Positions 44,897 to 48,513 are shown, numbered from the stretch's first letter. The stretch: 64,000 nucleotides of DNA from Candidatus Bathyarchaeota archaeon (GCA_963720565.1 CAVRFW010000005.1:320001-384000); one strand, 5' to 3'. Notes: generated by a model from the letters alone, not told the origin. Numbers and translations are program-made.

Positions 44897-45676
44897 CTAA
44901 CCTTTTGTGAGCACTATTTCAATTGTTGAAACCATTCTTGCTCTGGTTTCGCCTTCTCTTGGCGGCATCTCCTCTGTTCCTATGACGATTTTGCCTATTT
45001 TTAGGTCTTTTAGAAAGCGGTTTCTGGTTATTTCAGCCGCATCAACAGCTGTAGTTATAGCATGTCCTCTGGCCTTCAAGATTATCTCCTCAACCTTGCT
45101 GCCAGAAAATCCTGTTATTATTGCCATTACATAATCCATTGGCATTTTGTTTCCCACGAAAACGATTTTTCCCGGTGCTCGAATTGAAGGCGAAACTTTC
45201 TTTTCAATAGTCGCAGGCTTCTTCTCTTGAGTCAAGTCTTTTGCTTCAGTGGCAACCGCGGTAGTTGGCAGCTGTGCTTTAGTCTCTTGCTGAGTTGGCT
45301 CTTGAGCAATTGTTAGATCTTCGATTTCTCCATTACAGCTGTTCCTGAATGCTTCAATTCCGTTCATGCAGCCCTCTTTAGTCTCGTAGCCCTCACTTTG
45401 AGCGATTATTTCTCCGTTTGAAGCATTCAGATGAAACCTGAACTTGCCATTTTCATCGCAGAACACTTGATATTTGGGGTTGCTAATTCTCTTCTGTTCT
45501 GTGGTCATATCTTCAATTTCTGAATTGCAGTTTTTCTGAACGCTTCTCACACCTTTGATACAACTTGCATGTTGTTCATAAGCTTCGCTTGCAGCCACAA
45601 TTCTGTTGTTTTCAGCATTAAGACGAAACCTGAACTTCCCTGCAGCGTCTTTGTAGACTTCAAATCTTCCTGGCAT
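44897..45676 (-). CDS. Tandem YegP/DUF1508 domains fused to a C-terminal Alba domain
   Basis: FEVYKDAAGKFRFRL.A.N..I.A.SE.Y twice; Alba motifs VFVGNK..MDYV, ILKARG.AITTAVD.AE, IGTEE, VSTIEIVL. Confidence 0.88.
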   Translation of the reverse strand: MPGRFEVYKDAAGKFRFRLNAENNRIVAASEAYEQHASCIKGVRSVQKNCNSEIEDMTTEQKRISNPKYQVFCDENGKFRFHLNASNGEIIAQSEGYETKEGCMNGIEAFRNSCNGEIEDLTIAQEPTQQETKAQLPTTAVATEAKDLTQEKKPATIEKKVSPSIRAPGKIVFVGNKMPMDYVMAIITGFSGSKVEEIILKARGHAITTAVDAAEITRNRFLKDLKIGKIVIGTEEMPPREGETRARMVSTIEIVLTKG

Positions 45677-45806
45677 GAAACTCACGAGACCATGATGTTG
45701 TGTTTCTAGTAGAAAAAGCTTTGCGAGTGCACGCTAAAAACGCAAAAAGGAAACGCCAGATCTTAAAGGCTTTAAGCAGAACGAAGTACAATAAGGTAAA
45801 TCAAAG

Positions 45807-46574: not shown

Positions 46575-46681
46575 CAACAAGTGAGTTACGCGAGGAGTAT
46601 AGTTTTGAAAGAAAGAATGAGTGTCAAAGAGTTGGAAAGTTTGGGGTCAACCTTCTTGTTCTCTTGCATCACCAAGATAAG

Positions 46682-46756
46682 TGGGCCGAGCCGGACTTGA
46701 ACCGGCGACCTTTGGCTCGTAAAGCCAATGTCCTAACCAAGCTAGACGACCGGCCC
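46682..46756 (-). tRNA. tRNA-Val(TAC), CCA not encoded
   Basis: Reverse complement GGGCCGG...TTGGC-TTTACGA-GCCAA...GGTTCAAGTCC...TCGGCCC-A. Confidence 0.95.
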
Positions 46757-47018: not shown

Positions 47019-48003
47019 CTAGGATACAGACTGAGTTTCAACGATCTTTTCAATTATGTCCAATGGGTTTTCGAGCGAGGCAAGCTTTCGCTTCACGTCA
47101 AATTTTCTTCCAATATTGCTCTTGGCAATTCTGAGCAAGTTTTGAGGGCGAGTTATGAAAAGGGGGAATCCCAGTTTCGAGAGGTACTTGTTTACATAGG
47201 TGTTTCCAATTTCAGAAACCACAATGCTGGGGACACCTTGAAGCGCAGCTTCCCTTGCCAGCGTTCCTCCTGCGCTAACAACCAAATCAGCATTAGCGAC
47301 GAGGCTCGCAGAATCAACAAAATCATCGTTCGAGCCAAATCCCACACTAGTTCTGTTATATCTTCCGAGACAGAAGATGTTCCCAAGAGAGCTTAGTTTT
47401 TCCGTAACTGTTTCGGTGAAATCACTTGTGCCTCCGGCATAAGCAGCTTTCGTCTCCATTTGTCTAATAACAATCAGGGGTTTTTCAGAAGCAGCCTTCT
47501 TAGGCGGCTTGAAATCTTTAATCCAGGCCACTTCATCTACGCCATCAAATTGAATGATTTTCCTAGCGCCCTGCCCTATCAGGAATCGTCTAGGAATAGA
47601 GCATGATGCAACAACAGTGGTGGCAAATGGTATTGTGAGCCTGTTCACCGCCGTTGCGTGAGGAGTATCCGCGGTTAGAACTATGGGGATTCCCAAACCA
47701 AAGGCGGTTCGACACAGCTCGACAGATTGATGTGCTATTGCTAAATCCGGCTTGTCGCTCTCAAACATTCTTGAAAACTTGATTACACGGCTAGCACTTT
47801 CTTCTAATCTGGAAAAAACCGAATCGGGACTATATTTGCCGACTACTACCGGTTCTTCTTTGAGAATTCGCGCTAAGTGGGAGAGTATCAGGGTGATCTC
47901 GCGTTGTGAGCAGTACTTCATGACCTCTTAGTCTGAGGCGCCGGGCAATAGCTGTGCCGTACCTGATATGCTTGCCTGTGCAGGCATCATACCAGATCTT
48001 CAT
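47019..48003 (-). CDS. DUF354 family (GT-B-like) protein (apparent extra base near 47875)
   Basis: MKIWYD...GHEVLLTTR after GGTGA; PDLAIA, AFGLGIP, ADLVVSAGGTLAREAALQGVP. Confidence 0.8.
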
Positions 48004-48513
48004 GGGTTCACCTTGCGCTTTTCTTTGAATGAAGGTTTCACGTTTTAGATTGTATTCTTCGATTGACATTATTTCCCTAGCTGGAACTCCAATCGCGACT
48101 TTTCCGGAAGGTATGCTTTCTGTGACTACACTCCCTCCGCCGATTACACAATTCTTGCCTAAAACCACGTTCGGCAACACCGTGACGCCTCCGCCAATTA
48201 TTACATTATCTTTCACTATTGGGGGAGTTAGGAGGCTGCTCTTTGGGTATTTGTCGTTTAGGAGAGTGCTGTTAGGGGCGATAAACACATTATCCCCAAG
48301 TATGCATCCATTTGAAATGGTAACGTGCGCCTGAATGTTGCAATTGCTTCCGATTTCAACATTCTTGCCTATGTCGCAAAAACTACCTATACAGGTTCTA
48401 TCGCCAATTCTTGCGTTATCACCAATTACTACATAATTCCAAATGGCGACATTAGCCCCTAATTGAACATTGGCACCAAATATCACGCCTTTTCCCTTTT
48501 TCAGAGTCGGCAT
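48000..48513 (-). CDS. Hexapeptide-repeat sugar N-acyltransferase (WbpD-like)
   Basis: Left-handed beta-helix repeats, VFIAPN..LLNDKYP, IGGGSVVT..IP...AIGVPAR. Confidence 0.85.

Follow-up and report, generated by a model that had tools for sequence, protein, structure and literature searches.

Alba, one of the main chromatin- and RNA-binding proteins of archaea, is regarded as a small, free-standing dimer; the usual count is one or two Alba genes per genome. YegP/DUF1508 (Pfam PF07411, UPF0339) is, to our knowledge, widespread in bacteria, archaea and phages, with several solved structures and without a known function.

The available sections of a review of archaeal chromatin note the Alba genes of Bathyarchaeota only as Alba1 and Alba2 (PMC6136690). 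For DUF1508, the available part of a preprint describes tandem copies at the N-terminus of ubiquitin-like proteins, monomeric in solution (bioRxiv 10.1101/2024.11.21.623966), and the excerpted text of a further study places yegP genes downstream of the DNA-damage-responsive regulators capK/capS (PMC13373217). As far as these excerpts go, both associations fit a portable N-terminal module tied to stress or defence, and neither gives its function. Proteins in which YegP is fused to Alba are already present in public databases. In agreement with the original prediction, which knew of no account of this architecture, no description of Alba combined with YegP or DUF1508 was found in the literature searched, subscription journals and InterPro lying outside that search. 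The titles and abstracts of the listed papers that mention DUF1508, UPF0339 or PF07411 reveal none on Alba, and the sole match for 'Alba domain' together with 'domain architecture' concerns SAMD9.

The window analyzed here is a stretch of 64,000 nucleotides from a Candidatus Bathyarchaeota archaeon (GCA_963720565.1, CAVRFW010000005.1:320001-384000). On its minus strand, a single open frame of 259 aa runs from an ATG at 45676 to a stop codon at 44897-44899. An in-frame GTG is located three codons upstream of the ATG, at 45685; homologues begin at the residue equivalent to the ATG, with the pattern MP.(K/R)F.... The features of the gene are as follows.

44897..45676, minus strand: YegP-YegP-linker-Alba coding sequence (ORF list, translation, both Pfam families above cut-offs, full-length relatives 50-96% identical)
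45503..45676, minus strand: YegP/DUF1508 repeat 1, residues 1-58 (Pfam DUF1508, model elements, invariant residues)
45311..45481, minus strand: YegP/DUF1508 repeat 2, residues 66-122 (Pfam DUF1508 with its best stretch at 74-113, model elements)
45173..45310, minus strand: disordered E/K/T/A/S/P-rich linker, residues 123-168 (pLDDT below 50 at residues 124-166)
44900..45172, minus strand: Alba domain of the clade C type, residues 169-259 (Pfam Alba, NCBIfam TIGR00285, solved Albas, model)
45710..45718, minus strand: putative archaeal TATA-like T-rich box CTTTTTCTA, 34-42 nt upstream of the ATG, proposed from the nucleotide sequence only

The frame had been predicted to hold, uninterrupted, two YegP repeats, a T/E/K/P/Q-rich linker of about 45 aa and a complete Alba domain, and this layout was borne out by the open reading frame, by Pfam and by an AlphaFold model. 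In Pfam-A, DUF1508 matches two segments (109.1 bits, cut-off 22, E 9.4e-32), and Alba (PF01918) matches residues 171-233 with 47.6 bits (cut-off 25, E 1.4e-12). The model, built with 83 fusion sequences, contains two folded parts with pLDDT values mostly between 80 and 95, while residues 124-166, in the linker, remain below 50. With both domains above curated thresholds and the architecture present in many independent assemblies, the two-domain call is far beyond chance. In four RNA-library runs, single short contigs (184-232 nt, 95-99% identity) cover parts of the gene; they may represent DNA.

A search of 5.8 billion proteins yielded 369 matches at E ≤0.001, and both Pfam families are present in 89 of the best 120. 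These 89 fusions, 178-325 aa long and 50-96% identical, come from JGI, ENA, NCBI and Logan assemblies. In the source databases, 25 bear the name 'DNA-binding protein Alba', and none is named after YegP. For all conservation values given below, 83 fusions were aligned, leaving out P0019, P0022, P0050, P0064, P0087, P0089 and P0092 for odd length or partial coverage. Of the 332 species genomes in family f1 (class Bathyarchaeia), to which the window belongs, 14 from four genera carry the fusion. Twelve of the 14 copies are full-length and stop-free, one (G038) aligns in two pieces within one 268-aa frame, and one (G493) has an internal TAG. The fusion thus also occurs in other genomes, as the prediction had presupposed, and the YegP-Alba fusion is a real conserved gene of sediment and wetland Bathyarchaeia.

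Its spread is narrow. In a class-wide sample it was found in 3 of 301 genomes, all of them f1, among the 150 strongest matches. When representatives at 50% identity were searched, one full-length fusion was seen among the best 150 of 3678 matches, pointing to a compact and probably young family that amounts to essentially a single cluster at this identity level. The narrow spread argues for an accessory protein of one lineage and not for a general feature of archaeal chromatin. Two damaged copies were also recorded. The G493 copy (G493:C9:163439-164131, L039), which carries the internal TAG, matches residues 20-258 only, and a second copy in G578 (G578:C8:96115-96666, L063) covers residues 61-258 and has a TGA.

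The linker of the window protein comprises about 45 aa (residues 123-168). Across the 83 fusions its length varies from 21 to 73 aa with a median of 33, its composition is rich in E, K, T, A, S and P, and its sequence is poorly conserved. Such a low-complexity segment is the sole possible hiding place for an assembly or sequencing error that would have merged neighbouring yegP and alba genes, and nothing else speaks for an artefact of this kind. The uninterrupted architecture of the 89 database proteins from several sources and the stop-free single piece in 12 species genomes stand against it, as does an independent 1135-nt contig of another public run. This contig spans 45106-45900 at 98% identity and crosses the linker with 13 substitutions and no gaps, so that the continuity of the linker, on which the original prediction depended, is confirmed without an indel. 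Ten of the 13 differences fall within the coding sequence. Eight of these lie in the linker and account for all 7 amino-acid changes (residues 147-167), and the remaining two, in YegP repeat 2, are both synonymous. An artefactual fusion is therefore scarcely conceivable.

The fusion gene stands alone between genes of the opposite strand. Its neighbours in the window, a methyltransferase, an ORF without a family, a YgbA_NO protein and a tRNA-Val, give no functional link. An all-against-all comparison of the flanking ORFs of 13 fusion loci revealed no conserved neighbour except in two genomes of one genus. A conserved operon was rejected on these grounds and, since no operon partner is conserved across the 13 loci, the fusion is most likely a self-contained unit. 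An integrated element at the tRNA-Val (46681-46756) was likewise rejected, there being no repeat of the tRNA 3'-end and no step in composition. No PADLOC-DB family matched at E ≤0.01 and defence genes are absent nearby; a defence link was rejected for want of a PADLOC match. Elsewhere in this region, a hexapeptide-transferase ORF (47830-48513) runs into the beginning of a DUF354 ORF (47019-47921), both on the minus strand. The Pfam match of the DUF354 ORF starts at profile position 43 of 349; the N-terminal part of this protein may lie in another frame, owing to a frameshift or a fused gene.

In the model, each YegP repeat has the order strand-strand-strand-helix-strand. The elements of repeat 1 are E4-9, E15-20, E26-29, H36-49 and E53-56, and those of repeat 2 are E68-73, E79-84, E90-93, H100-113 and E117-120. 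Modelled alone, the pair reaches a pLDDT of 91.9 and a pTM of 0.82. Residues D10, R16, F17, I26, Y33 and G42 of repeat 1 are invariant in the 83 aligned fusions, and so are the basic strand residues R16, R18, K68 and R80 of the pair. A conserved, EIEDLT-like acidic motif closes each repeat. Taken as a whole the pair is mildly acidic (median pI 5.55, net charge -2). By score, the protein just misses the HVO_2922 equivalog (NCBIfam NF041908; 89.4 bits against a cut-off of 90), and the structural match to 6q2z has Z 7.2 over 58 residues; we regard the protein as related to the HVO_2922 family and do not assign it to that equivalog.

Up to four conserved cysteines (C39, C50, C103 and C114) are placed near each helix end of the tandem head, and the single-domain YegP of the window's genome (L005) has one of these only. 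Judging by their positions, the four-cysteine set could be a candidate metal or redox site. As a further observation, one domain of a baseplate protein of the Anabaena contractile injection system (PDB 7b5h, chain AD) resembles the tandem YegP model (Foldseek probability 0.99, TMq 0.57; Z 7.3, rmsd 2.5 over 99 residues).

The Alba domain scores above the cut-offs of two NCBIfam models, the Alba equivalog TIGR00285 (92.7 against 88.25) and NF003088 (95 against 90), and solved Albas align with residues 170-258 (E-values from 1.5e-19 for 2z7c to 1e-15). Its model consists of E170-174, H179-191, E197-203, H206-221, E225-237 and E247-258, at pLDDT 85-95. The usual GKKP had been read as GNKMP in this protein, and in the HMMER alignment GNKMPM indeed lines up with the GKKPVM of solved Albas, free of insertions. 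G175, K177 and P179 are invariant in the 83 fusions, and position 176, an N in the window protein, is mostly N and sometimes K; N176 is thus typical of the clade and not fixed. The first lysine of GKK, whose acetylation adjusts how Sulfolobus Alba binds DNA, is therefore absent from most fusions and kept in a minority, and binding or its regulation may differ from Sulfolobus Alba for this reason.

Further conserved positions of the domain in the 83 fusions are K201-A202-R203-G204, R218, R220, F221 and R247. Among them, R203, G204, R218, R220 and R247 are invariant, as is K177, and K201, like R240, is at least 90% conserved. We take these basic positions to be nucleic-acid contacts, as in the structures of Alba complexes. 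The domain as a whole is strongly basic (median pI 9.9, net charge +5).

Modelled as a pair, residues 165-259 give an ipSAE of 0.74 against 0.00 for the best control, with 100% contact agreement between runs and a partner pLDDT of 87. Among proteins of solved structure, 20 of 30 pairs and 1 of 23 single chains reached that mark. The interface is predicted to run through helix 2 and strands 3-4 (residues 204-215, 227-234 and 248-254), and its residues are mostly invariant or nearly so in the 83 fusions. The Alba domain is thus predicted to homodimerise; the pass is possibly due to solved Alba dimers and, since such dimers have already been solved, it is to be read as likeness and not as proof.

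The explanation we favour, and hold to be somewhat on the probable side, is an Alba dimer, likely bound to DNA or RNA, that displays two tandem-YegP heads on flexible linkers. The C-terminal Alba domain would dimerise, as suggested by the in-silico prediction together with what is known of the family, and the dimer would bind DNA or RNA like other Albas, as its conserved motifs and basic character suggest. Each dimer would then carry two N-terminal heads on tethers of 21-73 residues, and these heads may serve as recognition or recruitment modules which the Alba part anchors on chromatin or RNA. Given the mild acidity of the heads, we favour a protein or a small ligand as their partner over nucleic acid in bulk. 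Their role is the weak step of the explanation: with YegP lacking a known function, a recruitment head is a guess.

The tandem head could instead bind nucleic acid itself. The YegP pseudo-dimer would then hold single-stranded nucleic acid in the manner of PC4 or Whirly proteins and the Alba dimer would hold duplex DNA or RNA, so that the two parts together would recognise or bridge single-strand/duplex junctions, for example at forks, in R-loops or in structured RNA. Foldseek returned weak matches to Pur-alpha repeat I-II (8chu, 3k44 and 5fgp), whose fold we take to be Whirly-like; at probabilities of 0.14-0.21 and TM values of 0.20-0.28 they lie far below a reliable level. Among the 50 rows listed from a wide structural search with the YegP pair, no PC4 or Whirly entry was present. 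The invariant basic strand residues of the pair would suit this arrangement, as would a substrate shared with the nucleic-acid-binding domain to which the head is fused, and the available part of a published account proposes two DUF1508 copies as an intrinsic dimer of sPC4/Whirly-like topology (PMC12065111). However, the pair has a slight negative net charge and conserved EIEDLT motifs, and a transthyretin-like beta-sandwich without a nucleic-acid link is the commoner partner of this head. The weak Pur-alpha matches, the lack of PC4 or Whirly entries among the rows and the acidity of the heads lead us to prefer a head for recognition or recruitment to a second one for nucleic-acid binding, and we consider a two-part binder unlikely.

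The Alba domain of the fusion belongs to an expanded set of paralogues. Four Alba genes are present in the window's genome, where the other three lie at G000:C9:198305-198493 (L001), G000:C5:212333-212521 (L002) and G000:C8:99580-99768 (L003), and 4-6 were counted in each of five fusion-carrying relatives (loci L040-L065). A tree of 44 Alba domains resolves three groups. The canonical Alba, of the GKKPVMNYVLAC type, is present once per genome, and clade B, of the GNKPPMSY type, about twice. Clade C, of the G-N/K-K-M/T-P-M-D-Y type, contains all fusion Alba domains together with stand-alone 97-aa proteins (support 98/99). In this tree L036 is a fusion and L063 the broken second fusion copy. No stand-alone clade C copy was seen in the window's genome, which is 88.8% complete. 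In G488 (L062, L064 and L059), the fusion Alba groups with the two stand-alone clade C copies of its own genome (support 100/99), one of which it matches almost exactly, and this suggests gene conversion or a recent exchange between fused and free paralogues.

The original prediction had described the protein as an Alba paralogue with a YegP part. It is a true, fused paralogue, as claimed; going by the tree, its Alba domain is not an altered copy of the ordinary Alba and belongs to a lineage-specific paralogue clade, clade C. The original prediction also held that the protein could co-assemble with ordinary Alba. The pairing modelled here is that of the Alba domain with itself; heterodimers between the fusion and stand-alone paralogues are plausible, the fused and free domains of G488 being nearly identical. 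Other multidomain Albas were noted in metagenomes, namely an Alba-HHH_5 (helix-hairpin-helix) protein, a tandem Alba-Alba and a 764-aa protein with an N-terminal Alba (L027 at G205:C19:8363-8671, P0247, P0248, P0199, P0212 and P0186).

Likewise, the head is not special to Alba. A sister family of Bathyarchaeia (L012-L021 and L023; P0094-P0121) consists of tandem YegP, a linker and a transthyretin-like domain, and the head plus linker is more often found on this domain than on Alba. The YegP heads of the two families are 50-70% identical, share the acidic motif and are followed by a linker of the same kind; the C-terminal part of the sister family, however, is a beta-sandwich of about 95 aa instead of Alba. 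Pfam TTR-52 matches this beta-sandwich weakly, below the cut-off, and its neighbours in the ESM Atlas are proteins with TTR-52 or CarboxypepD_reg. At the protein start of the sister family, a signal peptide is absent. The family is much commoner than the fusion and occurs in f1 and in f5, a second family of the order. Its members, for example L018:1270-2019 on the minus strand, have an acidic or proline-rich linker and, in the beta-sandwich, the motif IYE(R/H)DRSF...DG.F.I.W. Separately, a paralogue in the window's genome at G000:C2:72381-72824 on the minus strand (L007:1114-1935) encodes tandem YegP followed by about seven PEVEVPEVKL repeats and no folded domain.

On a tree of 64 YegP heads, the label 'Alba' requires 4 changes, at least 3 of which are forced by well-supported branches, and an AU test of a single clade of Alba-fusion heads, a group named after the first tree had been seen, rejects it with p 0.004. 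Both results indicate that the C-terminal module has been swapped more than once among paralogues. Such exchangeability would suit a protein in which the YegP head is the working part and the C-terminal domain mainly dimerises or multimerises, nucleic-acid binding by Alba being secondary or lost. Transthyretin folds oligomerise, as do Alba folds, and the first lysine of GKK is usually replaced. Yet K177, K201, R203, R218, R220, R240 and R247 are invariant or nearly so outside the interface and the Alba domain remains strongly basic, and since a mere dimerisation scaffold needs neither, these residues and this charge count against it. The existence of stand-alone clade C members also argues the other way. 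We thus regard a pure scaffold role of the Alba part as quite improbable and keep to the nucleic-acid-bound Alba dimer with two displayed heads.

A more specific proposal concerns what the heads might do. They may be stress- or invader-sensing modules which the Alba paralogue anchors on chromatin or RNA, the whole forming a chromatin-resident sensor or recruiter; we give this proposal a low probability. If it were true, the fusion would be a 'Rosetta stone' for YegP/DUF1508 and an Alba-based regulator of a type not known in any archaeon. Apart from this, the fusion offers a testable lead for YegP, namely whether it acts on or near nucleic acids or recruits something there. It also shows that one family of Bathyarchaeia has expanded Alba to 4-6 paralogues and adds YegP-Alba to the multidomain Albas, with Alba-HhH and Alba-Alba found elsewhere; this expansion bears on the diversification of archaeal chromatin proteins.

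E. coli YegP (2k8e) aligns with residues 1-114 and superimposes on the model of the YegP pair with TM values of 0.80/0.86 in Foldseek, and Shewanella SO3888 (2k49) matches the same model with Z 17.1 and an rmsd of 1.6 over 112 residues. In both, as here, two DUF1508 repeats form one compact pseudo-dimer, at an identity of about 30%. Whereas 2k8e and 2k49 consist of the two repeats alone, the pair forms the N-terminal head of a longer protein in the fusion, and the EIEDLT motif of each repeat and the set of up to four conserved cysteines are features of this family's own.

With archaeal Alba (Sso10b/Sac10b; 2z7c, 1nfh, 1nh9 and 1h0x), the C-terminal domain shares the order of strands and helices in an end-to-end alignment over residues 170-258, the KARG and RxRF motifs, the second lysine of GKK and the predicted symmetric dimer. 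In contrast to these stand-alone proteins of 90-100 aa, the fusion has 168 extra N-terminal residues, its clade carries a MPPREGE hairpin, and the first lysine of GKK is usually N.

The closest layouts, as far as the available parts of their descriptions go, are DUF1508-Ubl of the Bub operons (bioRxiv 10.1101/2024.11.21.623966) and DUF1508-NsnA of Menshen (PMC12065111), both of which place tandem DUF1508 at the N-terminus in the same way. Unlike Bub and Menshen, the fusion has no nearby defence genes and no PADLOC match. According to the same partial accounts, the C-terminal part of the Bub and Menshen fusions carries a defined activity, and the partner joined to the tandem head differs, being a beta-grasp domain or NsnA in these bacterial systems and Alba in the archaeal fusion.
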